A DNA stretch of 64,000 nt from contig CAYPVK010000005.1 of the NCBI GenBank assembly GCA_964414185.1, positions 30,876 to 94,875 of the forward strand, read 5' to 3'. Positions 1,105-62,237 of this stretch are shown one piece after another. This DNA is from an uncultured Lactobacillales bacterium (GTDB lineage Bacteria; Pseudomonadota; Alphaproteobacteria; CAAHEQ01; UBA3637). Each line of letters opens with the position of its first letter. Position 1 is the stretch's first letter. The notes beneath the pieces are model-generated. The model did no database searches. It was not told where the DNA came from and saw only the letters and a list, made by a program, of their open reading frames with translations. A program made the position numbers and the translations under genes.

Positions 1105-1326
1105 ATCTTTTCTCCTTTATTGATTTATTGTTTGTATATAGGCGCCCGGCATAAAAAATGCAAGGGATAAATGCATGCTTTTGTATGTGCCGGATATGAA
1201 AACATACGGGCGTTTGAAAGTCTGAGACAAGATTTCTGTCTAAATTATTTACGCATTAAATCTTGCGCGGATGGCAAACTAATGCTATACATAGGGATAA
1301 CAAACAGCATTTCCAAAGGAGACAAA

Positions 1327-2958
1327 ATGGATATTAAAGCTATTAAAACAAAACCTTATATGGATCAAAAAACGGGTACGTCGGGATTGCGCAAAAAGGT
1401 CAAAGTTTACGCTCAGGAAAATTATGTTGAAAACTTTGTGCAATCCGTTTTTGATTCGTTGGAAGGGTTTGAAGGCAAAACTTTAATCTTAGGCGGCGAC
1501 GGGCGGTATTTTTCCGAACATGCCATCCAAGTCATTATGAAAATGGCGATTGCCAATCAATTCGGGCGAATCGTCGTCGGTCAAAACGGTATTTTGTCAA
1601 CGCCTGCTTTATCGCATTTGATTGTTAAAAGAGGCGCTTTCGGCGGGTTGGCTTTAACCGCTTCGCATAATCCCGGCGGCCCCGATCATGATTTCGGCAT
1701 TAAATATAATATTGCAACGGGGGCGGGCGCGCCGGATGCGTTGACCAATAAAATTATTGAACGCACGAAAGTCATTGACCGTTATTGGATGGTGGATATC
1801 CCCGATATTGACTTGTCGAAAATCGGCGAACAACAAATCGGGTCGATGATTGTTGAAGTGATTGATCCCGTTGATGATTATTTGGCATATATGCGGGAAA
1901 TTTTTGATTTTGATTTGTTGAAAAAATTATTTGCTTCCGATTTTACCTTTGCCTATGATGCGATGAACGCCGTGACGGGGCCCTATGCCAAACGGATTTT
2001 TGAACAAACGTTGGGTGCTAAAGAAGGGTCGGTTATGAATGCAAAACCGTTGCCCGATTTCGGCGGTTTGCATCCCGAACCGAATTTGACCTATGCCAAA
2101 CATGTTGTGGATTTGGCCTATTCGGACAAAGCGGCCGATTTTACGGCGGCGTCTGACGGGGATGGAGACCGCTATATGATTTTGGGGAAAAGCTTTTTCT
2201 TAAATCCGTCCGATTCGTTGGCGGTTATGGCACGGTTTTTGGATCGTATTCCTTTTTACAAAGGAAAAATGTACGGCGTGGCGCGCACAATGCCGACTTC
2301 CGCGGCAACGGATGCCGTCGCGCGGGCAGAAAATTTGCCGTTGTATGAAACGCCGACTGGTTTTAAATATTTCGGCAATTTGTTGGATGCCAAGCTTATT
2401 TCATTATGCGGCGAAGAAAGTTTCGGCAGCGGGTCTTCCCATTTGCGTGAAAAGGATGGTTTATGGGCGATTTTGGTTTGGTTGTCGATTGTTGCGATGA
2501 CGGGCAAATCGGTTGAACAAATCATGCGCGAACATTGGGAAAAATACGGCCGTGTTTATTGTTCGACACATAATTATGAAGAATTGGAAGCCGATGCGGC
2601 CAACACGATGTTGCAAGCGTTAAACGATAAATTGGGTACTTTGGTCGGTACCGAGTATGCCGGTTTAAAAGTAACCAAAGCGCATATTTTCGATTACGAA
2701 GATCCCGTTACGCATGAAAAGGTCGAAAATCAAGGCTATGAAATCCATTTTGATGGCGGCTGTCGATTTGTTTGCCGATTATCGGGCACAGGATCTGTCG
2801 GGGCTACGTTGCGCGTTTATTATTCAAAAGAAACGACCGATAAAAAATTGTTGAACGAAAATGTGCAAGATATGTTGGCCGATGTTATTGCCGCTTCAAA
2901 AGAGATTTTGGAAATTAAAAAGTATGTCGGGCGCGATGTTGCTTCCGCCATCACTTAA
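1327..2958 (+). CDS. pgm: Phosphoglucomutase, alpha-D-glucose phosphate-specific
   Basis: The track ORF is 1171..2958. The likely start is MDIKAIKTKPYMDQKTGTSGLRKK at 1327, preceded by AAGGAG. The active-site signature TASHNPGGPDHDFGIKYN and a GDGDGDR metal-binding loop are present. Confidence 0.85.
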   Translation: MDIKAIKTKPYMDQKTGTSGLRKKVKVYAQENYVENFVQSVFDSLEGFEGKTLILGGDGRYFSEHAIQVIMKMAIANQFGRIVVGQNGILSTPALSHLIVKRGAFGGLALTASHNPGGPDHDFGIKYNIATGAGAPDALTNKIIERTKVIDRYWMVDIPDIDLSKIGEQQIGSMIVEVIDPVDDYLAYMREIFDFDLLKKLFASDFTFAYDAMNAVTGPYAKRIFEQTLGAKEGSVMNAKPLPDFGGLHPEPNLTYAKHVVDLAYSDKAADFTAASDGDGDRYMILGKSFFLNPSDSLAVMARFLDRIPFYKGKMYGVARTMPTSAATDAVARAENLPLYETPTGFKYFGNLLDAKLISLCGEESFGSGSSHLREKDGLWAILVWLSIVAMTGKSVEQIMREHWEKYGRVYCSTHNYEELEADAANTMLQALNDKLGTLVGTEYAGLKVTKAHIFDYEDPVTHEKVENQGYEIHFDGGCRFVCRLSGTGSVGATLRVYYSKETTDKKLLNENVQDMLADVIAASKEILEIKKYVGRDVASAIT

Positions 2959-3046: not shown

Positions 3047-4855
3047 TTATTTTTCAACGGCGCGTTCCAAGCGATATTCCAATAAATCCAATTCGGCATT
3101 AAAATCTTTCGGTCGCCGTGTGAATGTTTTTAAATAATCGCGTTGAGCTCGTACGTCTTCAAGAGCTGTTTTCGCATCGACGTCCATCAATGCTTCAAAC
3201 GCTCGGACGGACATATCCAAACCGCGCCAGTCCAAATCACCGTGAGCCGGCATCCAACCCGACGTTGTTTCAACCGCCCCTTTTTGTCCGTTTGCGCGAC
3301 CCGCTATCCATTCAAGAACACGCATGTTTTGTCCGTATCCCGGCCACATAAATTTGCCGTTTTTATCTTTTCGAAACCAATTGACACGGAAGATAAGAGG
3401 TTTGTGTTTCAGCTTAGCCCCCATATCAAGCCAATGTTGCCAATAATCGCCCATGTTATAGCCGCAAAACGGCAACATTGCGAACGGGTCGCGGCGAATT
3501 TCGCCCATTTTGCCTTCGGCAGCCGCCGTTTTTTCCGACCCCATTGTGCTGGCCAAATACACACCGTGTTGCCAATTAAAGCTTTGGTAAACCAACGGTG
3601 TATTGGTTGCCAATCGGCCGCCGAACACAAACGCGTCAATGGGTACGCCGGCGGGATTTTCCCAATCTTTGTCAATGGTCGGGCATTGTGCGGCGGGTGC
3701 CGTAAAACGAGAATTCGGATGTGCCGCGGGCGTATCGGATTTCGGTGTCCAATCATTGCCTTGCCAATCAATTAAATGTTTCGGCGGCGTATCTGTCATG
3801 CCTTCCCACCAAACGTCGCCGTCATCGGTTAATGCAACGTTTGTAAAAATCGTATTGGCGCGACAAGAATCCAATGCGTTTTTATTTGTTTTTTTCGACG
3901 TGCCGGGGGCTACGCCGAAGAAGCCCGCTTCGGGATTGATAGCATACAATTTGCCGTCTTTGCCCGGTTTAAGCCAAGCAATATCGTCGCCGACCGTGGT
4001 TACTTTCCAACCTGTCATGGCTTTCGGCGGGATAATCATTGCCAAATTCGTTTTGCCGCAAGCGGACGGGAAAGCCCCGCAAATATAGGTTTTTTGTTTG
4101 CCTTTTTGCACACCGACAATCAACATATGTTCGGCAAGCCATCCTTCGTCGCGTGCCATTGTCGAAGCGATTCGCAACGCCAAACATTTTTTGCCCAACA
4201 ACGCGTTGCCGCCGTACCCGCTGCCGACCGAAATAATTTCACGCGTTTCGGGGTAATGTGTAATGTATGTATTTTCGGGATTGCACGGCCAAGGCACGTC
4301 TTTTTCGCCTTTTTTCAGCGGTGCCAATACCGAGTGCATACATTTGACAAAATCGCCGTTCCCAAGGACTTTCCATACGGCTTTGCCCATGCGTGTCATG
4401 ATGCGCATATTGGCGACCACATACGGCGAATCGGTAATTTCAATACCGATTTGGGCGATTTTTGACCCCAACGGCCCCATTGAAAACGGAATGACATACA
4501 TTGTACGGCCGTGCATGCACCCTTTCATCAATTTTGTTAAAGTGGCTTTCATCTTTTTGGGATCCGCCCAATTGTTCGTCGGGCCGGCATCAATTTCTTT
4601 TTCACAGCATATGAACGTGCGCGATTCGACCCGCGCAACGTCTTTCGGATTGGATCGGGCCAAAAAACTGTTCGGGCGCAATTTTTCGTTGAGTTTGATA
4701 AAAGTGCCCGATGCAACGAGTCCGTCACAGATTTTTTTATATTCTTTTTCTGACCCGTCACACCAATAAACGGCATCGGGTTCGCATAAATCCGCCATTT
4801 CTTGGACCCATTGAATGACTTTTTTATTTGTTGTCGGCAATAATTTTTTTGGCAT
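3047..4855 (-). CDS. pckG: Phosphoenolpyruvate carboxykinase (GTP-dependent)
   Basis: 602 aa. It carries [12 protein letters not shown] (GTP-PEPCK kinase-1a) and the length and architecture of the GTP-type rather than the ATP-type PckA. Confidence 0.9.
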
Positions 4856-4953
4856 AAGTTCCTCCTTTTGTTGATTGATAAGAACAGTCTAAGCATCTTT
4901 TTTTTTGATGTCAAATCGAAATGGACGAATTTTAAGCAAAAAAAACTTTCATT

Positions 4954-5745
4954 ATGTGTAAAAATAAAGTCATGATAAAAAACATGACAAAATTAAATAA
5001 ACTTCTTTTACTAAATTCAAACAATCCATCGCATATTCAAAATGCTCTTCAAGAAAACGGTTTTGCCCAAGTGACGCAAAGCGGGCGTATCTGTGTGCCG
5101 TTTGCCCCTTCAAATATTCATGTTTCCCAAAAGGGGAATCGTCTCGGCACGACTTTGCAACAATTTTCGCAAACGGATGCAGATGCTTCGGCAAAGAAAC
5201 GGCCGGTATATTCCAAAGAACAAGTGCGTATCGGTACACAACGGTTCCGTATAGTGCGGATTGTCAGACGGAACAAAAAAGAATTTACGGCAATTATCCG
5301 AGCGTTTGAAGTTTTGGCACAAACGCCGACCGGACGGCAAACATTGTTGACAATCCCCGAATCGGCTTCATATGCCGTGTCAAAGTTGCCGTCAATGGCT
5401 CAAATGTGCGGTAATAAACGACAAATTATTTTTTCTGATGACAAAAGTTTGTATAAACGCTCGTTAGCCGAAACGGTTGATACCGTCGGGCATGAATATA
5501 CGCATTTGGTTAACCATCGAAACATTTACGGTAAAAATTTTGAAGAAACAGAAGCCGATTTTTTCACCATTAAAATACTGGATGAAATAATGGCATGGAT
5601 GCAAGCGTCGCAAATGGTTCATGAAGCGCGCGAAATGGAATTGTTGCCGTGCAAATCGAACAGTCGTCCGTTGACGGTCAGTCAAGCTTTTGATGAAACG
5701 TTATCGTGCGGTTTATCCCGATATGTTTATTTTGTCAATTTGTGA
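4954..5745 (+). CDS. Hypothetical HExxH-motif protein (putative zinc metalloprotease-like), no signal peptide; probably disrupted near its 3' end
   Basis: Contains VGHEYTHLVNH followed by EETEADFF. The body is homologous to the downstream 6056..7024 protein, and the homology continues in a different frame in ORF 5690..6013. Confidence 0.35.
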   Translation: MCKNKVMIKNMTKLNKLLLLNSNNPSHIQNALQENGFAQVTQSGRICVPFAPSNIHVSQKGNRLGTTLQQFSQTDADASAKKRPVYSKEQVRIGTQRFRIVRIVRRNKKEFTAIIRAFEVLAQTPTGRQTLLTIPESASYAVSKLPSMAQMCGNKRQIIFSDDKSLYKRSLAETVDTVGHEYTHLVNHRNIYGKNFEETEADFFTIKILDEIMAWMQASQMVHEAREMELLPCKSNSRPLTVSQAFDETLSCGLSRYVYFVNL

Positions 5746-6013
5746 AAAACGGCATATTTCTCCCTTTTTATTGGTACAATCCGAACATGCGCATTCGGAT
5801 TATTTCAAGCAAAAGGCTATCCCGTATTTTTTATCGGCATATCCGGCTTTAAAAGAAGAATCGTTATTGAAAAATATTGAATCTCTTTATAAAAAATCAA
5901 TTGCAAAAAGGGTCGGAGAATTGATTTCGACGGGATGCAAAATTCCTCCCGCAATGGTGGCGGCCTCGGGCGAAAAGGGCGTTAAGCGCATATATGAAAC
6001 GGTAAAATTTTAA
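5690..6013 (+). pseudogene. Out-of-frame C-terminal continuation of the 4954..5745 gene (frameshifted paralogue of the 6056..7024 gene)
   Basis: YPDMFILSICEK...DYFKQKAIPYFLSAYPALK aligns with FMPDIFEILQK...AFYEIQSAYFELHPELK of the downstream protein. The two ORFs overlap by 56 nt. Confidence 0.3.
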
Positions 6014-6055
6014 AAATTTTTAAGTATGTAATTAATCATAAACAAGGTAACGCGT

Positions 6056-7024
6056 ATGTATAAAGGGCCTTATGCTGATTTGATTTTTAAAGAAGAAGAA
6101 AATTTCATCGCACCGAATGGCGAATTAAAGGCGCATGTGGAAATTTTAAAGAAAAACGCTCAATCTTGTTTAATCGCCGGATTTGAAAAAGCAACACCTG
6201 CACAAAATAAAAAACGGTATCGGGCGCTTTGCGAAGCATTGGATAATTTATACCAAATAAATATCGGGCGCCAAATTTTGATGCAATTGACCCAAAATGT
6301 AACGTTGGTCAGTTTAAAAGCCGAACCGGATGGCCCGTTTGCGGGAGTGCACGGCATTTCTTGGGGACATTTGGAATTAGCCGACATTACACCCGATACA
6401 TTGTTAAAATGCCCATACTATGAAACGATGGAAGCTGTCGCGCATGAATTGATGCATATTGCTCATTATTATTTGGAACAAGATGTGTTGAATGAAGTTC
6501 GGCAAGCGGACGGGCGCGATTTAACGGATGAATTGCAACATGCCGATGAAGCGTATCATTTAAATGCGTATGATTTATTTACTTTAAGGTTTTTAAATGA
6601 AGCGGGCGCTTATTTAACCGGGCAAAGCGTGGCGTATTGTTTTATGCCCGATATTTTCGAAATTTTACAAAAAACAAAAAAGATGGCATTTTCTTTAAAC
6701 CCGTTGTTGCGCAATGACATTTATTGGCGGGAAAATTATCAGGAAACCTTAGAGCGCATTTCGCAATCGGCGGACAGGGAACAAGAATTGGCGACACATC
6801 ATACTAAAGCTTTTTATGAAATTCAAAGCGCTTATTTTGAATTGCATCCTGAACTTAAAAACGCCCGCTTGACAAGGTATATTCACAAAGGGTTTAAAAT
6901 GTTATCCGATGCCGTTTTGAAAGATATGCATGTTTGTGACGAAAAAAAGTTGATGCCCGCACGCTCTTTGTCGGCGTTTATAAGACCCTTGTCCCGCATT
7001 TGGTCGAAACGGTTCAAAAATTAA
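6056..7024 (+). CDS. Hypothetical HExxH-motif protein, intact paralogue of the upstream gene
   Basis: 322 aa with AVAHELMHIAHYY followed by an acidic DELQHADEAYH segment. No signal peptide. Sits in an AT-rich context. Confidence 0.4.
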   Translation: MYKGPYADLIFKEEENFIAPNGELKAHVEILKKNAQSCLIAGFEKATPAQNKKRYRALCEALDNLYQINIGRQILMQLTQNVTLVSLKAEPDGPFAGVHGISWGHLELADITPDTLLKCPYYETMEAVAHELMHIAHYYLEQDVLNEVRQADGRDLTDELQHADEAYHLNAYDLFTLRFLNEAGAYLTGQSVAYCFMPDIFEILQKTKKMAFSLNPLLRNDIYWRENYQETLERISQSADREQELATHHTKAFYEIQSAYFELHPELKNARLTRYIHKGFKMLSDAVLKDMHVCDEKKLMPARSLSAFIRPLSRIWSKRFKN

Positions 7025-7231
7025 GGGTATAAATGTCGGCACATCACCTTTTTTTTGCGCATTTGTTTTTCCGAATGCCGCCTTTGTCGAAATTAAATCC
7101 GAAAAAAGTAAGTTTTCAACAAAAGCATTTGTATCTTATCGTGACACGAATTTGTTAATTTTAAATAAAAAAGTTGAAATTATTTAAAAATATCTCTAAG
7201 ATGTGGATAGATAAGAAAAAGGGAAAATTTC

Positions 7232-7981
7232 ATGATGAAAAAATGGCTGTTGATTGGATTTTTGGGCGTGTTTTTGTCTGCTTGTGCCGCCGACAACACG
7301 ATCCCCGACCGTCCGCCCGAAGAATTGTATAAAGAGGGGATGCGCCTGTTTGATGAAACCGATTATGACGAAGCGGCGCGTTATTTCGATGAAATCGAAC
7401 GCCAACACCCTTATTCCGAATGGGCGGCGCGTTCGCAAATCATGGCGGCGTATGCTTTTTACCGCAAAAACCAATATGACGATGCGATTTTGGCATTGGA
7501 CAGGTTTATCCAGTTGCACCCCGGCAATAAAAATACGCCGTACGCTTATTATTTAAAAGGTTTGTGCTATTATGAACAAATGAGCGATATTGCCCGTGAA
7601 CAACAAATGGCAATCGATGCCAAAGATACGTTCCAAGAATTAATTGCCCGTTTTCCCGATTCCGTGTATGTTGCCGATGCAACGGCCAAGCTCGGGTTGA
7701 TTGAGGACAATTTGGCGGGTAAAGAAATGGCCGTCGGCCGGTATTATTTAAAAACGCATGAGTACTTGGCCGCGATGAACCGATTCCAAAACGTTATCAC
7801 GTATTATGCGTCAACCAACCAGGCGGATGAAGCTTATTACCGGTTGGCGGCTTGTTATGTATCGCTCGGCATGATGAAACAAGCGCGTGAATTGGCACTT
7901 GCGCAGGAAAATTTATATAAAGGCAGCAAATGGGCAAAACGGACGCTTTCTTTGTTGCAGAAATACGGTAAGGCAAAATAA
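7232..7981 (+). CDS. bamD: Outer membrane protein assembly factor BamD (lipoprotein, TPR-like)
   Basis: Signal peptide with lipobox FLSAC followed by TPR-like repeats. The N-terminus PEELYKEGMRLFDETDYDEAARYF is typical of BamD/ComL. Confidence 0.8.
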   Translation: MMKKWLLIGFLGVFLSACAADNTIPDRPPEELYKEGMRLFDETDYDEAARYFDEIERQHPYSEWAARSQIMAAYAFYRKNQYDDAILALDRFIQLHPGNKNTPYAYYLKGLCYYEQMSDIAREQQMAIDAKDTFQELIARFPDSVYVADATAKLGLIEDNLAGKEMAVGRYYLKTHEYLAAMNRFQNVITYYASTNQADEAYYRLAACYVSLGMMKQARELALAQENLYKGSKWAKRTLSLLQKYGKAK

Positions 7982-7987
7982 AAACGA

Positions 7988-11831
<3,844 letters not shown>

Positions 11832-11877
11832 AAATATGGTTATGATTGAAAAAAAATTTAATTATGAGGGGGCGAAG

Positions 11878-14610
11878 ATGGACGATTTCGACAAGCAGTT
11901 TTCGAACAGATATCCAAGCGGGCAGGATAATCAATTTTTTGCACCGCAGCCGCCGCAGCCTGCCGAGCCGCCGTTTGATGCTTCGTCGTCGTTGGAACCC
12001 GAAGAAATTCAGCAGCAACCCGAAAATGATTTATTGGCGCAAATTTCCGCTAATGATGCCGAAGAGGAAGCCAAACGTTCCAAATCTTCGCATTCTTATA
12101 TGATGGAATTTGTCGTCTTGTTTATGAAGATGACTTTCATATTGGACGACGCCAGACGCAAATACCATAAAATTTTTGATGTTCTGGCTTTTGTTTGGGC
12201 CGGGATTATGAGCGTGATTTACGCGGGCGGTTTGGCGATGTTGATTTTGCTTGTTTATACCTATATCCAATTTCCCGCCGTTTTGCAGGAAAATTTGGAA
12301 CGCCAGGGGATTAAGGTTAAAGATTTTAAAGTCGACAATTATACATTTTCGTTGATTGAGCTGGACGATTTGGTCGGTGTCGACGATATGTTTACGATTA
12401 AGAAAATGTCGATTCATTCCACTTTTTCCGATTTTATCAAACGCCGTGTCAAATCGGTAACTTTGGATGGTGTGCGTATTAAAATCAAAGCATCTAAAAA
12501 AGGGTTTGAGTTGGGAACATTGCCCAAAACGCTTGTTACGTTGAATCACAGTCCGTTGACAAAAACCGTCAAAGTGGACAATTTAATGATTCAAAATGCC
12601 GTTTTGGAAATTAACGGCCAAGATTTTACATTGCCGGTTTCTTTTTCGTTGACGGGTATTTATGAAAAAGATTCCAAAATTTCGATGCCGATTTATATCA
12701 AAGAAAAAAATGTCAATGCCGTGGGTACGCTTGATATTAACGGCAATATCAAGGAAATGACGTTTACGTTTGAAATTAAGGCCGGGACATTGACATTGCC
12801 GCGCCGTTCGCCCGAAAATATTTCGGGAAAAATTGATGTTTTGACAAAGAATATGAGAATTGTTCGTATTCAAGGCGATGCCACAATGTCATACGGCGAC
12901 AATGCCAAAAAATTGCAATTGAATTTAGATCGTTCGAACAATGATCTCTACAAAGGAACGCTTGATTTTTCGTATGCCAGCTCTGACTCGTACGGCAAAG
13001 AAAAAGATGTGCAGATGACGGCTTCTTTGAATTTTGACGGCATTGCGATTACGAAAGAAAATCAAATTCTGTCGGATAAAACAATTAAAATTGTTGTGCA
13101 AAATTTCCAAAAACAAGGTCTCAACCTGTCTAATTTCAGTGCTACCTTAAACGGCCAGTTGAAATGTAAAGAAATGATGTGCGGCTATAGAATCAAACGT
13201 TCTTCCCCCGTTTTTATTCGCGAATCATCATTATTGTTTAACGGGGATACGATTCGTTCGTCCGGAGAATACTCTTTCTTGCTTGCTCCCAATAACCGTC
13301 AGACTGTTATGTGGCGCAATAACCGTGTTGCGTTTGATGTTTCGGTGGAAAGGATGAATTTTTCGGGATTCCGCAATTCTCAAATATCTCCCGTTTCTTT
13401 GACGATACCGTCGGGGGCGTACAAAGGGGAGATCAATTTGGCCCAAGGGACTCAGACAATGTCCGTCAATGTGCAGGATACCAGTATTAAAACGCCCGAA
13501 TTTTCGGCTTCAAAAGTCGCATTCAAAAGTACCGATTTATTCAATGAACGTGCCCGTATAGAAATTAATGCCGGCAATGTTGAATTGACCGAAAGTGAAA
13601 TTTTCAGACAGCCGTTTAAATTGACATTGGAGCAAACGGGTTTGGATACAAAAGCTTTAATCAGCATGTCGGACAATGCAATACGTTTGTCTTTTTCCGG
13701 TGCCGCACGATTGTTGTCGGGCGAATTCAGAGGGAACGTTTTCTTGCATGAATTTGATTTAAGCCAAATTAATACACCGTTGAATCGAGTTTCATCGTTA
13801 TTCCCTGAATTTATGCAAAATGCCAAAGGGAAAATCGGTGCACTCGGTACCGTTTATTGGAAAAATGCCAGACAAATCACGGGGCCGTTGTATGTTTCGT
13901 TAAAGGATGTCGGCTTCGGCGTTAACGGTTGGTCGGTTGAAGGGCTTAACACCGTTTTAACATTGCAAAGTTTGGAACCGTTAGTAACGCCTTCGGGTCA
14001 GAAAATTTTTATTTCTGATTTTAAAGGGCCGATTGTTTTGCAAAATATTGTGCTCGACGGTAAGGCGGACAGCCAATTCTTTAAACTTAATAAAGCCGAT
14101 GCAACGTTATCGAATGTTCCTTTGAAGGCCGATTCGGCGTTGATTCCTCGCAAAACAACAAACGTGACGGTTTTTTTCAAAAACAATTCGGTCAATTGGA
14201 CGGATGCTAACGGCGGATTGGATTTGGACGGAATGCTTATAAGCGGCCGTGGCAGTGTGTTGTTGCCGATTGAATTCCGCGACGGCCGTGCCAATATTAA
14301 AAATGCCGAAATCAAAATGTCCGACGGCGATATGGATTTGTCGAAACTGACGAATAAAAAGCTTAAAGCCTATTTCGGCGATGCAACGCGTTACGTTGTT
14401 CGTACCGGTACGATTTCGCTTAACTCTTCCGATACGGATGAAAACATGACAACCGTCAATATTTCATTGGACGGCCGTTTAATACCCGGACAACAAATTA
14501 AAACCGTTCGTGAAAATTTGGAAGAGAACCTGACAAAATATATTCGCATGACGACGCCGCAGGCCGTTCCGGAAGATATTTTGAAAAAACAACAAATTAT
14601 TGCCAAATAG
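11878..14610 (+). CDS. Large membrane-anchored beta-rich protein, AsmA/TamB-like architecture
   Basis: The track ORF starts at 11782 and overlaps ligA. The plausible start is MDDFDKQF at 11878, after GAGGGGG. It has a Pro/Gln-rich N-terminus, one TM helix (VLAFVWAGIMSVIYAGGLAMLILLVY) and about 800 aa of repetitive beta-strand-like sequence. Confidence 0.45.
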   Translation: MDDFDKQFSNRYPSGQDNQFFAPQPPQPAEPPFDASSSLEPEEIQQQPENDLLAQISANDAEEEAKRSKSSHSYMMEFVVLFMKMTFILDDARRKYHKIFDVLAFVWAGIMSVIYAGGLAMLILLVYTYIQFPAVLQENLERQGIKVKDFKVDNYTFSLIELDDLVGVDDMFTIKKMSIHSTFSDFIKRRVKSVTLDGVRIKIKASKKGFELGTLPKTLVTLNHSPLTKTVKVDNLMIQNAVLEINGQDFTLPVSFSLTGIYEKDSKISMPIYIKEKNVNAVGTLDINGNIKEMTFTFEIKAGTLTLPRRSPENISGKIDVLTKNMRIVRIQGDATMSYGDNAKKLQLNLDRSNNDLYKGTLDFSYASSDSYGKEKDVQMTASLNFDGIAITKENQILSDKTIKIVVQNFQKQGLNLSNFSATLNGQLKCKEMMCGYRIKRSSPVFIRESSLLFNGDTIRSSGEYSFLLAPNNRQTVMWRNNRVAFDVSVERMNFSGFRNSQISPVSLTIPSGAYKGEINLAQGTQTMSVNVQDTSIKTPEFSASKVAFKSTDLFNERARIEINAGNVELTESEIFRQPFKLTLEQTGLDTKALISMSDNAIRLSFSGAARLLSGEFRGNVFLHEFDLSQINTPLNRVSSLFPEFMQNAKGKIGALGTVYWKNARQITGPLYVSLKDVGFGVNGWSVEGLNTVLTLQSLEPLVTPSGQKIFISDFKGPIVLQNIVLDGKADSQFFKLNKADATLSNVPLKADSALIPRKTTNVTVFFKNNSVNWTDANGGLDLDGMLISGRGSVLLPIEFRDGRANIKNAEIKMSDGDMDLSKLTNKKLKAYFGDATRYVVRTGTISLNSSDTDENMTTVNISLDGRLIPGQQIKTVRENLEENLTKYIRMTTPQAVPEDILKKQQIIAK

Positions 14611-26711: not shown

Positions 26712-28109
26712 TTAAGCGATTTTTTTATATTTGCCCGCGGTGGATTTATAAATGTAATTTTCGTATTTGATAATTTGATACTTTTGCGCGACCAATTCTT
26801 GACGCATTGTATTTTCTTTGTTAATGGCTTCAAGCAAATCTTTAAATTCCGCTTTGCCGTTATCATAACGGATTTGGTAGTATTTGGTAATTTTAACCGC
26901 GTTTTTGTAATTCGCTTCAAGGTTTTTGAAAATTTCCAAAGATTTTTCATAAGCGTAATAATAATAAGCCGTTTCATTTAACGCTTGGTTCAGCGTATCA
27001 TTAAATTCAATCAACGTTATTTCATAATCCGCTTTGGAAATTTTAATGTTGTTTTTGATTCGGTTGTAATCCAAAAACGGCAAATCAACACCGACCGAAC
27101 CGAACACAATCGGGAAATCAAACGTGCTGCGCGCTTTGTCGGAACTTGAACTGATGGCACCTTGTAATGATACGGTCGGATAGTAATTTTTTTCTTGCGC
27201 ATTTAAATTTTTAAACGCTTTTTCCAAACGGTATTGTGCGGCCATCAAATCCGGACGATTTGCCAAAACCGATAACGGTACATTCATATCAACCGACAAT
27301 ATTTTTTGATTGATTAGATTTTCATATTTCAAATCCAATGTGTCATCGGGTCCGGCGGCAACAATATTTTTTAAACTTTGCTCTGTTTCTTTAAACGTTG
27401 TCGTTAACGTCAATAATTTGTTTTTTTCGCTGAGCAAACTTTGGCGTGCTTGTGCCACTTCCAAATTGTCGACTTTGCCGCTTTTATATTTTTGTTCGGT
27501 AATTTTTAATGTATCTTGATAAGATTTAATATTTCGTTCGGCAAGTTTGATTGCGTTGTTTAAATAGGTCAGGTTGAAATATAAATCTATCGTCGAATTA
27601 ATTAACGACAATTTTGCGCTTTGGCGATCCAAAAAAGTAGCTTGGTATTCAAATTCCTGAGCCGTTCGGGCATCTCTGATTTTGCCGTATAAATCCGCTT
27701 CGTAATTTAATGCAAATTCGCCCGAAAAATTAGTTTTGGATTCGTGCCCTTTATTGAGCCCTTTTTGACCCGAAGTACCCAATGAACCGCTGAGCGTCGG
27801 AAATAAATCGCTGGTTGTTAAACTTAAACGAGCCAATTCTTTTTCAATATTGATTGCCGCCTTTAAATAATCCGGATTATTGGTTAAAGCTTTATCAACC
27901 AAAGCGGATAATTCGGGGTTGTCGTATCCTTGCCACCATGTTTCGTCAACACTGTAAGATTCACGTACTTCGGACGTATAATTTAATTTTTGCGCTATGT
28001 CCGGTTCGGTATAGGGCGTAACGGTGCATGCAGCCGTTAAAACCAGGCAAATGCTTAGAGCCGAACCCAAAAGTTTTTGTTTTATTTGAAAGGTGTTGTG
28101 TCGCGTCAT
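26712..28109 (-). CDS. Outer membrane efflux lipoprotein, TolC/NodT family
   Basis: 465 aa. Lipobox LTAAC, then two coiled-coil/beta-barrel repeats typical of OEP proteins. Last gene of the macAB operon. Confidence 0.8.
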   Translation of the reverse strand: MTRHNTFQIKQKLLGSALSICLVLTAACTVTPYTEPDIAQKLNYTSEVRESYSVDETWWQGYDNPELSALVDKALTNNPDYLKAAINIEKELARLSLTTSDLFPTLSGSLGTSGQKGLNKGHESKTNFSGEFALNYEADLYGKIRDARTAQEFEYQATFLDRQSAKLSLINSTIDLYFNLTYLNNAIKLAERNIKSYQDTLKITEQKYKSGKVDNLEVAQARQSLLSEKNKLLTLTTTFKETEQSLKNIVAAGPDDTLDLKYENLINQKILSVDMNVPLSVLANRPDLMAAQYRLEKAFKNLNAQEKNYYPTVSLQGAISSSSDKARSTFDFPIVFGSVGVDLPFLDYNRIKNNIKISKADYEITLIEFNDTLNQALNETAYYYYAYEKSLEIFKNLEANYKNAVKITKYYQIRYDNGKAEFKDLLEAINKENTMRQELVAQKYQIIKYENYIYKSTAGKYKKIA

Positions 28110-28121
28110 TTTATTATCCTA

Positions 28122-30062
28122 TCATTCACTCGCTAAAGCATCTATGGGGTTTAAATTGGAAGCGTTTTTGGCCGGCATGTATCCGAAAATAATGCCGATG
28201 GCACTTGAACAAACCAATGCAAAAACCATTGACGATGTGGAAAAATCCATACCGAAACTTTCCGAAAAGGTATTGAACGCCCATCCGATTAATAATGACA
28301 ATCCCACGCCGAAAGCGCCGCCGACAATACAAATTAAAACAGCTTCAATTAAAAATTGTTGCAAAATATCCGCTTGTTTCGCACCGATTGCCATGCGGAT
28401 GCCGATTTCTTTCGTGCGTTCGGTTACCGATACCAACATGATGTTCATCACGCCGATACCGCCGACAATCAACGAAATAACGGCAATCGAAGCAATCAAC
28501 AACCGCATGGTATTGGTTGTGCTTTCGATTGTTTGTTTAATGCTGTCGGTATTAATCATAAAGAAATCTTTTTTGCCGTGCAATGATGTTAAAATGTGTT
28601 CAATGCTTTCTTCGGCCACTTGCGAATTAATAAAGTCGGACACTTTTACCGTTATGGAATTGATGTCGTCATTCCCGTTGATTTTATACATAGCCGTCGT
28701 ATAAGGCGTCCATATGTTCATTGTTTCGCTCATAGGCCCGGAATTGTTGTCTTTTTCGGTAATGCCGATGACTTTCAACGGTTTTTTGTTGATGATAATT
28801 ATTTCGCCGACAGGATTCGGATTGTCGGGAAAAATTTCATTTAATGTATTATCGTCGATAACGGCAACCGATGCCATTTGATTCACTTCATCTTTCGTGA
28901 AAATTCGGCCTTGGGCTATCTTGCGTCCTTTTACTTCAAAGTACGATTCGCCGACGCCGCGCAAGGACGCCGTTGCGGAAAGGTTCCCGTAAACCAACGT
29001 GCCGCTTGCCGATACGTTCGGTGTCGAATTGTCAATAAACCCTTGTTTGGCCAAATAATTCGAATCGCTGACCTTCAATGTTTTGACTTTGCCCGACCGC
29101 ATGTCGCCGAAACCGGTCCCCGGCATAATGTCAATCGTGTTTGTTCCCATTTGATTGATGCGTTCCATGATTTTGGCTTGGCTTGCATTGCCGAGCGCCA
29201 CGACGCATACCACTGACGCAATGCCGATAATGATACCCAACATTGTCAATAAAGAACGCATTTTGTTGGCTAAGATTGCATGCATGGACATGTTAAGTGA
29301 TTCGAAAAATCCGTCTTTAAGCGCTTCAAATTTGTGTTTTTGAATTTTATTGATTTTATCCTTTAATTCCGAAAATTTGTTTGCTTTGCGTTCATCCTTG
29401 ACGATTTGCCCGTCTTTGATTTCGATGATTCGGCTGGCTTGGGACGCAATGGAAGTATCATGCGTAACAAGGATAATCGTATGGCCTTGTTCATGCAAAC
29501 TTTTAATGATTTCCATGACCATTTTTCCGCTTTGAGAATCAAGTGCGCCCGTCGGTTCGTCCGCCAAAATGATTTCGCCGCCGTTCATCAATGCTCTTGC
29601 AATGCTGACGCGTTGTTGTTGGCCGCCGGACAGTTCGTTGGGGCGGTTATTTAATTTGTCACCCATATTTAATTTTTTCAAAAGCTCAATGGCGCGTTTT
29701 GTTCTGTCTTGCGCGCTTAAGCCCAAATAAATGGCGGGCAGAGCGGTATTGTCGGTCGCTTTTAAAGATGATAATAAATTATAGCGTTGGAAAATAAAAC
29801 CGAATGTTTTGCAACGTAAATCCGCCAATTGGTCTTTGTTCATTTTGCCCGCTTCGACACCGTTGATTTTGTACGAACCGGTTGTCGGCACGTCCAAGCA
29901 TCCGATAATGTTCATCATTGTGGATTTGCCCGAACCCGATTGCCCGATAATGGCAACAAAATCGCCCTTTTCAATGCTTAAATCAATGTCTTTCAGCACA
30001 TGTACGCGATTTGCGCCGCTCCCGAAAAATTTATTGATTTTTTTCAGTTCAATAATGTTCAT
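28122..30062 (-). CDS. macB: MacB-type ABC transporter (fused ATPase-permease)
   Basis: 646 aa with Walker A GQSGSGKST, the LSGGQQQR signature and a C-terminal FtsX-like 4-TM permease domain. Confidence 0.9.
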   Translation of the reverse strand: MNIIELKKINKFFGSGANRVHVLKDIDLSIEKGDFVAIIGQSGSGKSTMMNIIGCLDVPTTGSYKINGVEAGKMNKDQLADLRCKTFGFIFQRYNLLSSLKATDNTALPAIYLGLSAQDRTKRAIELLKKLNMGDKLNNRPNELSGGQQQRVSIARALMNGGEIILADEPTGALDSQSGKMVMEIIKSLHEQGHTIILVTHDTSIASQASRIIEIKDGQIVKDERKANKFSELKDKINKIQKHKFEALKDGFFESLNMSMHAILANKMRSLLTMLGIIIGIASVVCVVALGNASQAKIMERINQMGTNTIDIMPGTGFGDMRSGKVKTLKVSDSNYLAKQGFIDNSTPNVSASGTLVYGNLSATASLRGVGESYFEVKGRKIAQGRIFTKDEVNQMASVAVIDDNTLNEIFPDNPNPVGEIIIINKKPLKVIGITEKDNNSGPMSETMNIWTPYTTAMYKINGNDDINSITVKVSDFINSQVAEESIEHILTSLHGKKDFFMINTDSIKQTIESTTNTMRLLIASIAVISLIVGGIGVMNIMLVSVTERTKEIGIRMAIGAKQADILQQFLIEAVLICIVGGAFGVGLSLLIGWAFNTFSESFGMDFSTSSMVFALVCSSAIGIIFGYMPAKNASNLNPIDALASE

Positions 30063-30065
30063 GTG

Positions 30066-31244
30066 CTAAAATCCTCTCGGGCCTCTGATTGATGCCGTTT
30101 TATCCGAAATTTGAGAAGAAGATAGGGCAGCTATGACAATTTTTTCCCCTTCTTGAACGCCTTCCGTAACGGCAATGTTTAATCCGTCGGAAATGCCGGT
30201 TTTGATATGCCGTTTTTGCGTCCCTTCATCGGTTAATATTTCGACATATTTATCATTTCCGCTGCCTTTGACGGCGATGGAAGGCACTGTCAAAACATTT
30301 TCGGCATTTTCGACATAAATAACGTTTTGCGTGGTCATGCCGATACGCAATTTCCCGTCTGCATTCGGAACGATTAAACGGCCGTAATAATAAATGGCTT
30401 CGCTTGACCCGACTACTTCGGCGTATTCCCCGTTAGTCAGCAATGTCAATCCCGGGTCGATAGATTTCAAAATTGTTTCATATGTTTTGTCCAAATCGGC
30501 CAAAGTATGATAAGTCACTTTTACGCCCGGTTTTATATTGTTGATGTCACCTTCGGAAATTTCAATCAAAATTTCCATTTCCGCCAAATCCGCAATTTGT
30601 ACGATTGTCGGCGTATTCATGGCGGCGTTGACCGTTTGTCCTTCTTTGACGGGGACGGATACAACCGTTCCGTCAAGCGGTGCGGTGATTTTTGTATAAC
30701 CTAAGTTTGTTTCGGCGGTGCTGAGAGCAATTTTGGTTTCTTTAATCGCCGATTGCAATTCGATGACTTTTGATTTCGCGCTTTCGTATGCATCGTTTGC
30801 GTTTTCCAAATCTTCCGCCGATGCGGCATTTTGTTTGTTAAGGGATTGCATACGTTCATATTGTTTTTTTGCGATTTTAAGCGATATATCCGCAGCATTT
30901 AATTGCGCTTCATAACTGGTTAATTTGGCTTTTGTGCTGTCCACTTCGTTTTGTTGTGTCGTCAAATCGATTTGGGCAATCATGTCTCCCTTTTTGACTT
31001 GGTCGCCGACTTTGACATACAATTTTTCGATTTTCCCGGAAGCCTGTGCACCGACCGTTACCAATTCGATGGCCCGTACTTCGCCCGTTGCGTTGACGAC
31101 TTTTTGAATATTTTGTCGCTTGACGGTATCGGTAATATATTCAATGGTATCCGCCGGCGCGAAATATTTGTAGGCATAAAAGCCGATAACTAAAATTATC
31201 AAACTGTAAATAAAAAATTTCGTATGTTTCTTTAAAAAATTCAT
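30066..31244 (-). CDS. macA: Periplasmic adaptor (membrane fusion protein), MacA/HlyD family
   Basis: 392 aa with an N-terminal TM, a coiled-coil hairpin and beta-barrel domains. The 4-nt gap to macB suggests translational coupling. Confidence 0.85.
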   Translation of the reverse strand: MNFLKKHTKFFIYSLIILVIGFYAYKYFAPADTIEYITDTVKRQNIQKVVNATGEVRAIELVTVGAQASGKIEKLYVKVGDQVKKGDMIAQIDLTTQQNEVDSTKAKLTSYEAQLNAADISLKIAKKQYERMQSLNKQNAASAEDLENANDAYESAKSKVIELQSAIKETKIALSTAETNLGYTKITAPLDGTVVSVPVKEGQTVNAAMNTPTIVQIADLAEMEILIEISEGDINNIKPGVKVTYHTLADLDKTYETILKSIDPGLTLLTNGEYAEVVGSSEAIYYYGRLIVPNADGKLRIGMTTQNVIYVENAENVLTVPSIAVKGSGNDKYVEILTDEGTQKRHIKTGISDGLNIAVTEGVQEGEKIVIAALSSSQISDKTASIRGPRGF

Positions 31245-44839: not shown

Positions 44840-45835
44840 TTATTTCCTTCCCCTTTGCCTTTGAGCCCATGTAAACAATGCGAACGGGTCGGAATTTGAA
44901 GAATTGCTTTTTATTTTTACTGCGTTTCCCGGGTTGCCCACCGCTGTGGCGTTTTCCCCTTTTGCAGATTGATTTTCGGTATTGTTCCGCACTTTTTTTA
45001 AATCGATACTTCCTTCGGAATGTTTATCTTCAAAATTTAAATCGTAACGTTCTTTGTTCAAAATATATCCCAAATATAAATCGGTCGGCAATATTTTTTT
45101 TAAAATACCGTGAATGCGCCCGTAAACGCTTTTGGGATTTTTTGATGCCGTTTCTTTGAGCACTTTTGAAACTTGGACATCATCCAATGACAAATCCGCG
45201 ATTAAAACATTTGCATCCGTGTATTGATTTTCATAAGGTTTTAAATATTTTTCGGCCAAATAAAATTGTCCCATTTTGATAAATTCGCCGAACCATGAAC
45301 CGCTTTGTTTGAAATCCGACGGCAACAAAGCCGTTATGCGGCGGATAATATCGGCATTCTGTTGCGCTTTTGAAAAATCTTGCTCGTTCAACAGGTCTTC
45401 ATAGACGCCTTTGCGTTCATAAGGCATTAATTCGGTTATCTTTTTTATAACTTCGTTATCATCCGTTTTTAAGGCAGCACGCAAAAAATCACGATTTTTT
45501 AAATTGTCGGGGTCTTGCCGTGTTGCACCGTAAGCGCGTTCAAGGTATTTTAAAATTCCGTCGGTTTGGTTCAAATAATCGCCGCCGATTGCCGTGGAAA
45601 AAAGAGTTCTTCCTTTAAATTGTTTTTTTAAATCAACATGTTCATAATCAATGGGAACGGAATCAACATCTAAATTGTCATTGATAATGCCGCTTAAAAA
45701 AGTATTCACCCCGCCCATCAACAGCTTAATGTAATAAACACTTACTTCGTCCGGTTTGGCGTTTGCCAAATCGAAATTATATGTAATATAATCGTAATCG
45801 TGTTCTTTTTGAGGGGCGTCGGTTGTCTGATTCAT
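44840..45835 (-). CDS. Hypothetical cytoplasmic protein
   Basis: 332-347 aa depending on start (45835 or 45883). No signal peptide and no recognisable motif. AT-rich context. Confidence 0.4.
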   Translation of the reverse strand: MNQTTDAPQKEHDYDYITYNFDLANAKPDEVSVYYIKLLMGGVNTFLSGIINDNLDVDSVPIDYEHVDLKKQFKGRTLFSTAIGGDYLNQTDGILKYLERAYGATRQDPDNLKNRDFLRAALKTDDNEVIKKITELMPYERKGVYEDLLNEQDFSKAQQNADIIRRITALLPSDFKQSGSWFGEFIKMGQFYLAEKYLKPYENQYTDANVLIADLSLDDVQVSKVLKETASKNPKSVYGRIHGILKKILPTDLYLGYILNKERYDLNFEDKHSEGSIDLKKVRNNTENQSAKGENATAVGNPGNAVKIKSNSSNSDPFALFTWAQRQRGRK

Positions 45836-45996
45836 AATCAACTCTTTCAATTTTAATAATAAAATCAAAGCTTTTAACGGCAATTCGTAATACGATTATT
45901 TTAACATTTTTTTATTTTTTGTCAAGGTGCGAAATAACTTGAAAAGACGGGGCAAGTGTGCTAAAAAAACAATATAATCTAAAAAAAGGAGTTTTT

Positions 45997-51541: not shown

Positions 51542-52558
51542 TTATCTCGAATTTTCGCGTAAAACGGGTCGCCCCTTAAAAAAATAAGGCCTGTAGCGCA
51601 TTTCGGGCGTTGTATATCCGTCGTTCGGGCGATTTGCCAAACGTTCCGTGATAAGGGGTTTAAATTTTTTGTCAAAAAGATTTGAAGCTGTTTTGAGAGC
51701 ATGAGCAGAGACTTGAACAGGATTTTCGTATGCTTTGTAAACTTCATCTTGTCCGGAAAAAATTTTAAACAGCTGAGCCAATTGCATATCGCGTACCAAA
51801 TTGATATCAATGAATATCGGAATCTTTTTTTCCAGCGAATTATAATGTTCGACAATTTTTTCGGTTAATACCCACGGCAAAACGTCTGGTTTATTTACAG
51901 TGGGTGCAAAATCGGCATAAATATCTTGGCAGCAAATCATTTGCCCGAAATCAATAACGGATACTTTTTGGGTGTTTTTATCGTATAAAATGTTTTCGGA
52001 ACGTAAATCATCGTGTGCGATTGATTGCGTTTGACCGATAAAGTCCAATTTATAAACATCCATAACCTTTTGATAAACCGATGCCATTTCAGAACCGGTT
52101 ATTTTTTCAATATTTTTATCGAAACGCCAATCCGAAAAATTGCTTCTTGGTTTTACATTTTCTTCAATCGACAAACGGCTTTGATGCATTTCATTGAGAA
52201 AGACTGCGATATTTTGGGCAATTTTGTTTTGTTCCGCCGGGGTAAGCGAAGCATACAATTTTGATGTTAATTGTTCGCCCGATGCGTATTCTTCAATGAC
52301 ATAATTTGAACTTTTTTTTAAGATTTTGGGAATAAAAACGGGCACATTCAAATTTTCGATGCTTTTTAACCCTTCGCAAGCAAAATCCATTTCATCTTGC
52401 CAACGTTCTTTGCTTATTCCTTGTCGCGGGCGTTTGATTACGATGGGCATACCGTCTTTTTCGGTTAAATAAGCGGTGGAAAAATATCCTTTTCCCAAAA
52501 ATTTTTCTTCTTTTTCGGAATGTTGTTTTCTTTTTAAAATTTGAATCAATTTGGACAT
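51542..52558 (-). CDS. Kinase-fold phosphotransferase (APH/ePK-like), paralogue 1
   Basis: Gly-rich loop FLGKGYFSTAY, beta3 Lys in PIVIKRP, hinge EEYASG, catalytic loop HDDLRSENILYD and VIDFG. Start at MSKLIQIL (52558) or 52603. Confidence 0.6.
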   Translation of the reverse strand: MSKLIQILKRKQHSEKEEKFLGKGYFSTAYLTEKDGMPIVIKRPRQGISKERWQDEMDFACEGLKSIENLNVPVFIPKILKKSSNYVIEEYASGEQLTSKLYASLTPAEQNKIAQNIAVFLNEMHQSRLSIEENVKPRSNFSDWRFDKNIEKITGSEMASVYQKVMDVYKLDFIGQTQSIAHDDLRSENILYDKNTQKVSVIDFGQMICCQDIYADFAPTVNKPDVLPWVLTEKIVEHYNSLEKKIPIFIDINLVRDMQLAQLFKIFSGQDEVYKAYENPVQVSAHALKTASNLFDKKFKPLITERLANRPNDGYTTPEMRYRPYFFKGRPVLRENSR

Positions 52559-52662
52559 GTTTTTTATCCGTTTGCGTTTATAAATTTTATTATAACATAA
52601 CAAACGGATTTTGTCATAAAATTTTAAATTTGTTTCGAAAACTTTTTTGTTATGGAAAATGT

Positions 52663-55028: not shown

Positions 55029-55042
55029 CGGTCAAACTCCTT

Positions 55043-57340: not shown

Positions 57341-57366
57341 AGATTGTTACCCCCTTAATAATATCC

Positions 57367-59638: not shown

Positions 59639-59668
59639 TGAAGCTTACTCCTACTTAACTTACCCTAT

Positions 59669-62153: not shown

Positions 62154-62237
62154 TTTTTACTCCTTCTTTTTACAATATCGTATTTTTGGGGAATATACAA
62201 TATTATTTTTTTATTTTCCTTTTTTACTTTGACGCAT

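Follow-up and report, generated by a model that had tools for sequence, protein, structure and literature searches.

Among the curated families, only Pfam PF20573 (DUF6782), an uncharacterised family of putative metallopeptidases, was matched significantly by a member of the protein family analyzed here. A literature search on DUF6782 and on UBA7488, the metagenome-assembled genome with the only locus found in our scan of GTDB representative genomes, returned no papers. The closest known systems otherwise are the following. In MEROPS family M34, which includes anthrax lethal factor and PPEP-1, approximately 39–45 residues separate HExxH from the glutamate ligand, and the members are secreted toxins, or secreted proteases, that carry a signal peptide or a delivery domain. 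Family M91 contains the NleD type III effectors, and families M48 and M56 are membrane-embedded proteases. The minigluzincins (selecase, abylysin/projannalysin) are archaeal proteins of approximately 100–110 amino acids, consisting of a minimal core in which a small sheet is combined with an HExxH helix and a glutamate helix. In SprT, the third ligand is a histidine and not a downstream glutamate.

We have analyzed a stretch of 64,000 nucleotides from an uncultured alphaproteobacterium, hereafter called the window, in which two adjacent genes with HExxH motifs, A and B, are located between pckG and bamD. We consider it probable that they represent a lineage-specific, gluzincin-like pair that has been duplicated in tandem and is decaying in this genome by real and recent indels.

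Similarity to known metallopeptidase families

The significant match to DUF6782 was obtained for one family member, P0015, with 32.6 bits as compared to a gathering threshold of 27. It covers profile positions 17–137, which take in the GR motif, HExxH and the downstream glutamate, and is thus confined to the N-terminal half of the profile, leaving the C-terminal helical region uncovered. Another seven members, of both paralogue types, overlapped the same part of the profile below the threshold (12.7–16.3 bits, E 0.006–0.08). In all, 21 of the 22 aligned members were below the DUF6782 threshold, and no match was obtained for genes A and B of the window. We would place the family as an outlier of DUF6782 or a divergent sister to it, the link being marginal. 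Scans of the window proteins against Pfam and NCBIfam gave no match, 21 of the 22 family members were below every threshold in these two collections, and the PADLOC defence models revealed nothing relevant.

The gap from HExxH to the glutamate is long, as in M34 (27 residues in gene A and 48 in gene B). PPEP-1 and lethal factor were the top PDB matches to the predicted structure (E 0.36 and 0.65, respectively), although not significantly so (TM 0.25, rmsd approximately 12–22 Å), and there was no match to M34 at the sequence level. Like A and B, the M91 proteins are small and soluble, contain HExxH and lack a signal peptide. P0013 matched this family with 19.1 bits against a gathering threshold of 25 (E 0.0018), and the window proteins did not match. 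Resemblance to SprT-like proteins and Spartan was limited to approximately 45 residues around a strand and the HExxH helix (SprT-like in Pfam, P0013, E 0.00069, below the threshold; Spartan in PDB, E 0.062 with the family profile). A Peptidase_M48 match was seen in a single member (E 0.017), and transmembrane segments of the M48/M56 type were not found in A or B, which have no 19-residue stretch with a mean hydropathy above 1.6. The minigluzincins have the same minimal core, and selecase was superimposed on the model with an rmsd of 3.0 Å over 80 columns (Foldseek probability 0.85, E 1.5). The minigluzincin matches were not significant (E 1.4–2.8), and these proteins are without the N-terminal helices and the C-terminal bundle of approximately 120 residues of the family described here.

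Genomic context and paralogy

The original prediction had placed three open reading frames at 4954..5745, 5690..6013 and 6056..7024, and all three were found there. The features of the locus are as follows.

3047..4855, minus strand: pckG, GTP-dependent PEP carboxykinase, conserved left border of the array
4984..5713, plus strand: gene A (A-type paralogue), original-frame part with the predicted catalytic core, within the listed ORF 4954..5745
5491..5505, plus strand: HEYTH motif of gene A, predicted to be zinc-binding and catalytic; H and E invariant in the 22-sequence alignment
5584..5586, plus strand: Glu codon of the ILDE motif of gene A, predicted third zinc ligand; column invariant (22 of 22)
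5712..5714, plus strand: TTT run with one extra T, frameshift of gene A, from alignment to L004 and frame repair
5714..6013, plus strand: continuation of gene A in the +1 frame, C-terminal helical region (mechanical ORF 5690..6013)
5964..5967, plus strand: second indel of gene A, one base missing; CCTC as compared to CCTTC or TCTTC in relatives
6056..7024, plus strand: gene B (B-type paralogue), 322 amino acids as now read
6443..6457, plus strand: HELMH motif of gene B, within the predicted helix 121–151 of the model
6599..6601, plus strand: Glu codon of the FLNE motif of gene B (E182), predicted third zinc ligand, on the helix after the active-site helix
6964..6967, plus strand: CTCT for the CT of relatives, 2-base duplication in gene B
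7053..7136, no strand: scar of a deletion of approximately 610 bp; two PQ-loop (SemiSWEET-like) genes are located here in relatives
7232..7981, plus strand: bamD, YfiO-type lipoprotein, conserved right border of the array

The start of gene A that is conserved among the orthologues is the ATG at 4984 (MTKLNK) rather than the one at 4954, and a 2-base difference at approximately 4971 places the ATG at 4954 out of frame in L004. The ILDE glutamate of gene A, 27 residues past the second histidine, corresponds to E182 in the numbering of P0001. The deletion of approximately 610 bp is common to the window and L004. The stretch had been described as AT-rich, which is only modestly so: the GC content is 40.1% in genes A and B as compared to 42.9% in the whole window, with 46–48% in pckG, bamD and recN. 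A scan for consensus promoters and terminators revealed nothing that would define the operon structure. Thirty of the approximately 55 ORFs of the window, mostly the larger ones, were scanned for secretion genes; these include a type IVb-pilus-like cluster approximately 47 kb away and a MacAB-TolC-like pump.

In the lineages examined, the family was always found between pckG and bamD, in 1, 2 or 4 tandem copies, and in every one of them a housekeeping backbone surrounds the array at this fixed chromosomal site. That the two genes are tandem paralogues, as had been proposed, is supported by similarity above chance in both the pairwise and the profile alignments. BLASTP aligned A and B with 22% identity over 145 amino acids (E 9e-6), placing the HExxH motifs opposite each other, and the hhalign profile-profile comparison gave a probability of 95.5% (E 1.5e-8, 195 columns). 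One of the two peptide matches cited previously, DYFKQKAIPYFLSAYPALK versus AFYEIQSAYFELHPELK, was recovered by both hhalign and MAFFT. The other, PDMFILSICEK versus PDIFEILQK, was aligned by neither program and is probably due to chance. A neighbour-joining tree separated an A-type and a B-type clade, each with several lineages. Judging from the sequences, genes A and B are ancient and distantly related paralogues.

The family contains approximately 14 real clusters among 1.84 billion representatives, and a homologue search with the family profile identified no further members. Three candidates of 974–3570 amino acids, P0018, P0023 and P0026, aligned in many short stretches and were set aside as probable repeat artefacts. 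The family is rare and unstudied, consists of soluble proteins of approximately 300 amino acids and is confined to a single group of uncultured Alphaproteobacteria.

Conserved motif and predicted fold

The HExxH motifs that had been noted in both genes fall in conserved alignment columns, with H and E in 22 of the 22 members and the second His in 21. The invariant residues are G71, H130, E131, E182, A185 and P265 (with H134 in 21 of 22), in a family where non-orthologous members share 16–32% identity with P0001. The candidate third metal ligand, the glutamate downstream of HExxH, is found in all 22 aligned members. P0020 has HEAAY at the position of the motif, and hence not every copy need be catalytic.

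The alignment of 22 sequences yielded a good AlphaFold2 model (pLDDT 88.4, pTM 0.88), whereas six close orthologues gave a pLDDT of 47, which was unusable. In the model, the strands 83–85, 100–103 and 108–111 precede a long helix (121–151) that holds HExxH at residues 130–134, so that the motif helix is predicted to follow a small beta-sheet. E182 is placed in the next helix (171–196), the position of the third ligand in gluzincins, and is the predicted ligand here. The top Foldseek matches were enriched for zincins, including PPEP-1, anthrax lethal factor, selecase, abylysin, deuterolysin, IrrE-like and SprT-like proteins. None was significant, the best match having E 0.36 in PDB (PPEP-1) and E 0.07 among the viral structures. 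Sequence searches of PDB with three profiles also gave no significant match, with Spartan as the best (E 0.062). The suggestion of zincin-like proteins agrees with the core seen in the model, and no significant match to NleD, lethal factor or M48/M56 was obtained. The fold is most likely, according to the model, that of a gluzincin-type zinc metallopeptidase. With no significant structural neighbour and 21 of 22 members failing the family thresholds, we infer metal binding and proteolysis from the motifs and the model.

Frame disruptions in genes A and B

Gene A is split by a single extra T at 5712–5714, where every intact orthologue has TT, as seen from a comparison of GGTTTATCCC in the window with GGTTATCCC in L004. 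The insertion cuts the gene after approximately codon 243, counting from 4984, and detaches approximately 90 C-terminal residues. Intact orthologues are 333–338 amino acids long for gene A and 324 for gene B. In P0008–P0012 (299–338 amino acids) the segment '...ETLSCGYPDMFILSICEKRH...' is read without a break across the junction, and removal of one T from the run at 5712–5714 regains '...SCGYPDMFILSICEKRH...' in the window. The homology of gene A had been said to continue in the frame of ORF 5690..6013, which is borne out by the orthologues reading through the junction. A direct BLASTP comparison of ORF 5690..6013 alone with gene B was not significant (E 2.2), and the orthologues and the profile comparison were therefore needed to show the continuation.

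Two additional indels had been overlooked. A 1-base deletion near 5966 changes the frame of gene A once more, in sequence that is already out of frame, and the ancestral end FGRKGR (stop codon at 5983–5985) now reads SGEKGVKRIYETVKF. In gene B, the 21 C-terminal residues, which are conserved as FVGVYKTLVPHLVETVQKLRV (ancestral stop codon at 7030–7032), have been converted into SLSAFIRPLSRIWSKRFKN by a CT duplication at 6964–6967. All three indels were mapped against L004. Undoing them yields orthologue-like proteins, and the repaired C-terminus of gene B is identical to that of P0001, which identifies pseudogenisation as the right reading. The case rests on frame-disrupting changes relative to intact, conserved orthologues and on their reproduction in independent data. 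The frameshift or pseudogenisation predicted for the upstream gene is confirmed by the intact orthologues, by the indel repair and by the same allele in independent assemblies. The truncated product of gene A retains the entire predicted catalytic core, and ORF 5690..6013 has possible starts of its own (TTG at 5690 and ATG at 5693). Conceivably, gene A could still function as a split pair.

Selection and decay

The dN/dS values between the window and the intact alleles were 0.21–0.39 for gene A and 0.17–0.19 for gene B, as compared to 0.38 and 0.20, respectively, between two intact alleles. Since the values for the window are no higher than those between intact alleles, the mutations are inferred to be recent. 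The absence of relaxation in the window lineage is compatible with recent loss and with retained function alike. The neighbouring genes pckG, bamD and recN have exactly unchanged lengths and dN/dS values of 0.03–0.07, whereas genes A and B have acquired three indels within 2 kb, suggesting that relaxed selection is confined to this locus. In a second species, codon 217 of gene B has changed from TTG to TAG in four samples, which supports the dispensability of the locus. We conclude that the three indels are real and recent mutations and represent pseudogenisation at the strain level, that is, ordinary gene decay. Our best guess is that the product is a putative accessory cytoplasmic protease that the cell can dispense with.

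Alternative explanations

The genes had been proposed as candidates for translocated effectors on account of their lack of a secretion signal. The latter holds, in that a crude hydropathy scan revealed neither a signal peptide nor a transmembrane segment in A or B. However, a cytoplasmic enzyme would lack a signal peptide just as well, and nothing in our analysis backs the effector idea. Effector proteases that are exported or translocated independently of Sec, with fast evolution and inactivation driven by selection from targets or host immunity, would also account for dN/dS values that are 3–10 times those of the neighbouring genes, for the 1 to 4 copies across lineages and for the independent disruptions in two species. 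Weak matches to M91/NleD (E 0.0018), PPEP-1 and lethal factor point in the same direction, and some of the source samples are possibly gut metagenomes, going by their labels. Yet no type III, IV or VI secretion genes were identified among the 30 ORFs scanned, and every match to an effector family is below the threshold. The fixed housekeeping locus is seemingly inherited vertically, with no island features and a GC content that is just slightly low, and dN/dS values of 0.2–0.4 with a conserved core fit a cytoplasmic accessory enzyme equally well. We therefore consider the effector explanation unlikely. Its extended form, that a probably gut-dwelling clade exports proteases Sec-independently from a private, fast-evolving array that grows and shrinks between 1 and 4 copies, to attack proteins of the host or of competitors, with the strain-level knock-outs in this and the second species as adaptive losses under host or target pressure, is more doubtful still; if true, the exported array would constitute a novel family of effectors in a gut lineage that has been little studied.

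The zincin-like fold could also serve a non-proteolytic role, for instance in regulation or sensing, as with ImmA/IrrE or SprT, or in binding or scaffolding, which we find rather improbable. An IrrE-like protein is the best viral structural match (E 0.07), SprT-like and Spartan proteins are the best sub-threshold sequence matches outside DUF6782, and one member is missing the second His. On the other hand, none of the loci has an adjacent ImmR-kind HTH partner gene, and the full H-E-H...E set, present in 21 of the 22 members, speaks for a functional metal site. As ImmA/IrrE and SprT are themselves proteases, this explanation overlaps with the gluzincin-like pair that we favour.

A sequencing error in gene A, an option of the original prediction, or an assembly error would mean that the gene is intact in the true genome. 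Such an error would agree with the change being a single base within a short T run and with the intact genes in close relatives, such as the intact alleles in SRR22923231/232/234 and SRR10277272. However, the broken allele with all three indels was 100% identical over 2.6 kb in the Logan assemblies of SRR22923249 and SRR14160765. A contig of SRR14160763 also matched exactly over its span, which stops short of all three indel sites. The runs with the window allele come from two accession series, and the allele is also present in the NCBI record. The identical allele in independent assemblies rules out a one-off error and largely refutes this option. Moreover, three consecutive T do not form an error-prone homopolymer, and the flanking genes have no indels. 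We regard an error as very improbable. Possibly, the runs represent one circulating strain, in which case the sequence is real but the frequency of the allele is little informed by them.

Equally hard to credit is that gene A is made whole by programmed +1 ribosomal frameshifting or by transcriptional slippage on the three T. There is an overlap of 56 bases between the two ORFs, with the downstream frame open through the junction, but every orthologue (54% to >90% identity) has a single frame and a shift is thus not conserved. As judged by direct reading against established knowledge of prfB-type frameshift sites, GGU UUA UCC gives no +1 re-pairing and has no stop or rare codon at which the ribosome would pause, no slippery motif is present at 5708–5719, and three T are insufficient for transcriptional slippage. 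Even after recoding, the C-terminus would be garbled by the indel near 5966, and gene B has a separate indel. Finally, phase variation was rejected as the three-T run is too short, a toxin-immunity pair as both genes have the same catalytic motif, and a mobile island on the basis of the fixed synteny and the lack of mobility genes.

Proposed model and implications

We propose that an ancient tandem duplication at a single pckG-bamD site founded the family, and that the lineages have since come to differ in copy number. In the proteins, the two histidines of HExxH and the glutamate on the following helix would bind zinc, with the motif glutamate acting as the catalytic base, as suggested by the motifs and the model, and a C-terminal helical bundle would complete the protein. 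In this strain, the extra T at 5712–5714 truncates gene A past the catalytic core, the second indel being located further downstream, and the CT duplication alters the C-terminus of gene B, such that the locus appears to be decaying.

We recommend that the annotation treats 4954..5745 and 5690..6013 as one merged pseudogene and marks the C-terminus of gene B as altered. The current view of proteases or secretion is unchanged unless a substrate or an export route emerges. Through the analysis, the zincin metallopeptidases gain a small, almost unannotated family that has a confident predicted fold, invariant residues and, marginally, a connection to DUF6782. Gene decay at the strain level is also recorded for an uncultured alphaproteobacterium, as evidenced by the three indels, with a separate nonsense allele in a sister species.

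The tandem gene pair

The upstream HExxH gene (gene A) is split over two ORFs and the downstream one (gene B) is covered by one; all three ORFs of the original prediction were recovered where it had placed them. Gene A orthologues share a start that corresponds to the ATG at 4984 rather than 4954.

Genes A and B and their neighbours
3047..4855, minus strand: pckG, left neighbour
4954..5745, plus strand: 5' part of gene A, 263 aa
5491-5505, plus strand: HEYTH motif of gene A
5690..6013, plus strand: 3' part of gene A, 107 aa, +1 frame relative to 4954..5745
6056..7024, plus strand: gene B, 322 aa
6443-6457, plus strand: HELMH motif of gene B
7232..7981: bamD, right neighbour, followed by recN

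The region had been described as AT-rich, which holds only mildly (GC 40.1%, as compared to 46–48% in three flanking genes and 42.9% in the whole window).

The proposed homology of the two genes was confirmed by BLASTP (E 9e-6, 22% identity over 145 residues, HExxH motifs aligned) and by hhalign comparison of the A and B orthologue profiles (95.5% probability, E 1.5e-8, 195 columns). The hhalign alignment spans the post-frameshift region and pairs HSDYF..YPALKE with HTKAFY..HPELKN, one of two peptide matches originally suggested; the other, PDMFILSICEK with PDIFEILQK, was aligned by neither hhalign nor MAFFT. In a neighbour-joining tree, the A-type and B-type clades are apart and each contains several lineages, which shows that the duplication is old. 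Thus, genes A and B are ancient paralogues.

Family distribution and predicted fold

When 1.84 billion representatives were searched exhaustively with a combined profile (HMMER), no more than 17 proteins scored at E 0.001 or better, and 14 of these are of the same kind (approximately 275–335 aa). The family genes are located between pckG and bamD in all recovered loci with either gene in view.

Family gene copies in related loci
One copy: L013, an NCBI MAG labelled 'Alphaproteobacteria bacterium'
Two copies: the window's lineage, MAG UBA7488 (L007) and several others
Four tandem copies: L015, 5160-8897, between pckG and bamD (330, 289, 298 and 298 aa)

All four copies in L015 match the family profile (E 2e-31 to 5.5e-101), and the tree indicates that both the A-type and the B-type gene were duplicated again to give the array. 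The same arrangement is seen in part in locus L012. In most relatives (L008, L009, L016 and L020), gene B and bamD are separated by two minus-strand PQ-loop (SemiSWEET-like) genes of 87–88 aa (7059-7582 in L020). In the window (7053-7136) and in the related locus L004, approximately 610 bp with both PQ-loop genes are replaced by approximately 83 bp, a derived deletion adjoining the decaying genes.

In an alignment of 22 sequences, the B-type protein P0001 showed 16–32% identity to non-orthologous members. Invariant columns are G71 (in an 'xGRxxL' motif), H130, E131, E182, A185 and P265, and H134 is present in 21 sequences, in agreement with the HExxH motif noticed originally. The AlphaFold2 model from this alignment was confident (pLDDT 88.4, pTM 0.88), with N-terminal helices followed by three short strands, the long HExxH helix, a disordered loop, the E182 helix and a helical bundle; the predicted fold is a gluzincin arrangement. 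Foldseek returned no significant structural neighbour of the model, and the top non-significant matches were enriched in zincins (PPEP-1, lethal factor, selecase, abylysin, deuterolysin, IrrE-like and SprT-like). One distant member scored above the Pfam threshold for DUF6782 ('putative metallopeptidase'), which is not mentioned in the literature searched, and seven others weakly matched an overlapping part of this profile. A simple hydropathy scan showed no signal peptide or transmembrane helix, in line with the lack of a secretion signal noted originally. We infer that the proteins are soluble gluzincin-like zinc hydrolases. One member, P0020, has HEAAY instead of HExxH; with the second histidine lost, this copy may be catalytically dead.

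Frame changes in genes A and B

The 263-aa ORF retrieved only six clusters among 5.8 billion proteins, one being the identical truncated protein and five containing proteins of 299–338 aa. The five longer orthologues read LTVSQAF(D/N)ETLSCGYPDMFILSICEKRHISPFLL in a single frame, a stretch that corresponds to the end of 4954..5745 joined to the interior of 5690..6013. The upstream copy is thus split by a frameshift, as proposed. Alignment to L004 (locus 94% identical at the DNA level) mapped the split to 5712-5714 (window GGTTTATCCC vs L004 GGTTATCCC) and revealed two further frame changes that had been overlooked, three indels in total. One base is absent from gene A near 5966, which converts the ancestral ending FGRKGR* to SGEKGVKRIYETVKF*, and a CT duplication at 6964-6967 converts the conserved ending of gene B, FVGVYKTLVPHLVETVQKLRV*, to SLSAFIRPLSRIWSKRFKN*. 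Removal of the extra T and the CT restored orthologue-like proteins, and the repaired C-terminus of gene B is identical to that of P0001. The lengths of pckG, bamD and recN are exactly equal in the window and its relatives, showing that the indels are concentrated in genes A and B.

In pairwise comparisons of the window with intact alleles, dN/dS was 0.21–0.39 for gene A and 0.17–0.19 for gene B. Two intact alleles compared with each other gave values at least as high (0.38 and 0.20, respectively), and flanking genes gave 0.03–0.07. These values suggest a recent origin of the disruptions and a family that is normally under purifying but comparatively weak constraint.

In a second species (a UBA7488-like strain, gene B 79% identical), it is gene B that has been knocked out, independently, by a single TTG to TAG change at codon 217. 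The allele was found in four samples (DRR848748, ERR13993911, ERR13993889 and ERZ28565829), with loci 99.9% identical.

Gene B in the second species
L016, 4001-4975 (also L017, L018 and L019): split gene B, 216 + 107 aa

Alternative explanations

The suggestion that the proteins are translocated effectors gained no support from anything tested. Several features are compatible with a role in interactions and do not demonstrate it, namely the fast evolution, the variable copy number and the occurrence of independent knock-outs in two species; we consider the effector reading improbable. The locus has a fixed place in a backbone of housekeeping genes (htpG, pgm, pckG / A, B / bamD, recN, ligA, ydbH-like) with no mobility genes, and a scan of part of the window ORFs found no genes for type III, IV or VI secretion. 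Expression of gene A by programmed frameshifting is unlikely, since the shift is shared by no orthologue, slippery or pausing features are absent at the site, and the downstream indels would damage both proteins regardless.

Sequencing error was ruled out as the cause of the split, since window 4700-7300 is 100% identical to contigs independently assembled from SRR22923249 and SRR14160765 and the truncated gene A protein also occurs in an NCBI record. The contig from SRR14160763 matches exactly over the part that it covers, which stops before the indel sites. Intact alleles occur in SRR22923231/232/234 (94% nucleotide identity) and SRR10277272 (approximately 96%).

Other features of the window

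1171-2958: phosphoglucomutase, mechanical ORF of 595 aa vs 543 aa from gene callers in the identical locus L001; the true start is probably approximately 52 codons downstream of 1171
11782-14610: YdbH-like (AsmA-like) gene, 942 aa, in a second low-GC stretch (approximately 37–39% GC, 12000-13250); it follows ligA in every related locus
26712-31244, minus strand: MacA/MacB/TolC-type tripartite efflux set (OEP protein, ABC protein with MacB_PCD and FtsX domains, HlyD-type protein)
44840-45883, 57367-58332 and 62238-63275: three ORFs of 320–347 aa without a Pfam match (E cutoff 1e-5)
51542-53721, minus strand: second tandem paralogue pair, two adjacent ORFs of approximately 352 aa with matches to APH/choline-kinase-type phosphotransferase domains in both
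53889-63275, minus strand: type IVb pilus-like cluster (T2SSF, 764-aa T2SSE ATPase, PilO-like (PAP_PilO), secretin, TcpQ-like, two ORFs without Pfam matches), approximately 47 kb from genes A and B, to which no link was found

Conclusion

The paralogy, the zincin motif and the authentic frameshift of the original prediction stand, and the effector status has gained no support. Genes A and B are a recently pseudogenised tandem pair, and the family of putative metallopeptidases to which they belong is rare and lineage-specific. The case brings no surprise; it is useful for annotation and, as an uncharacterised family, modestly interesting.
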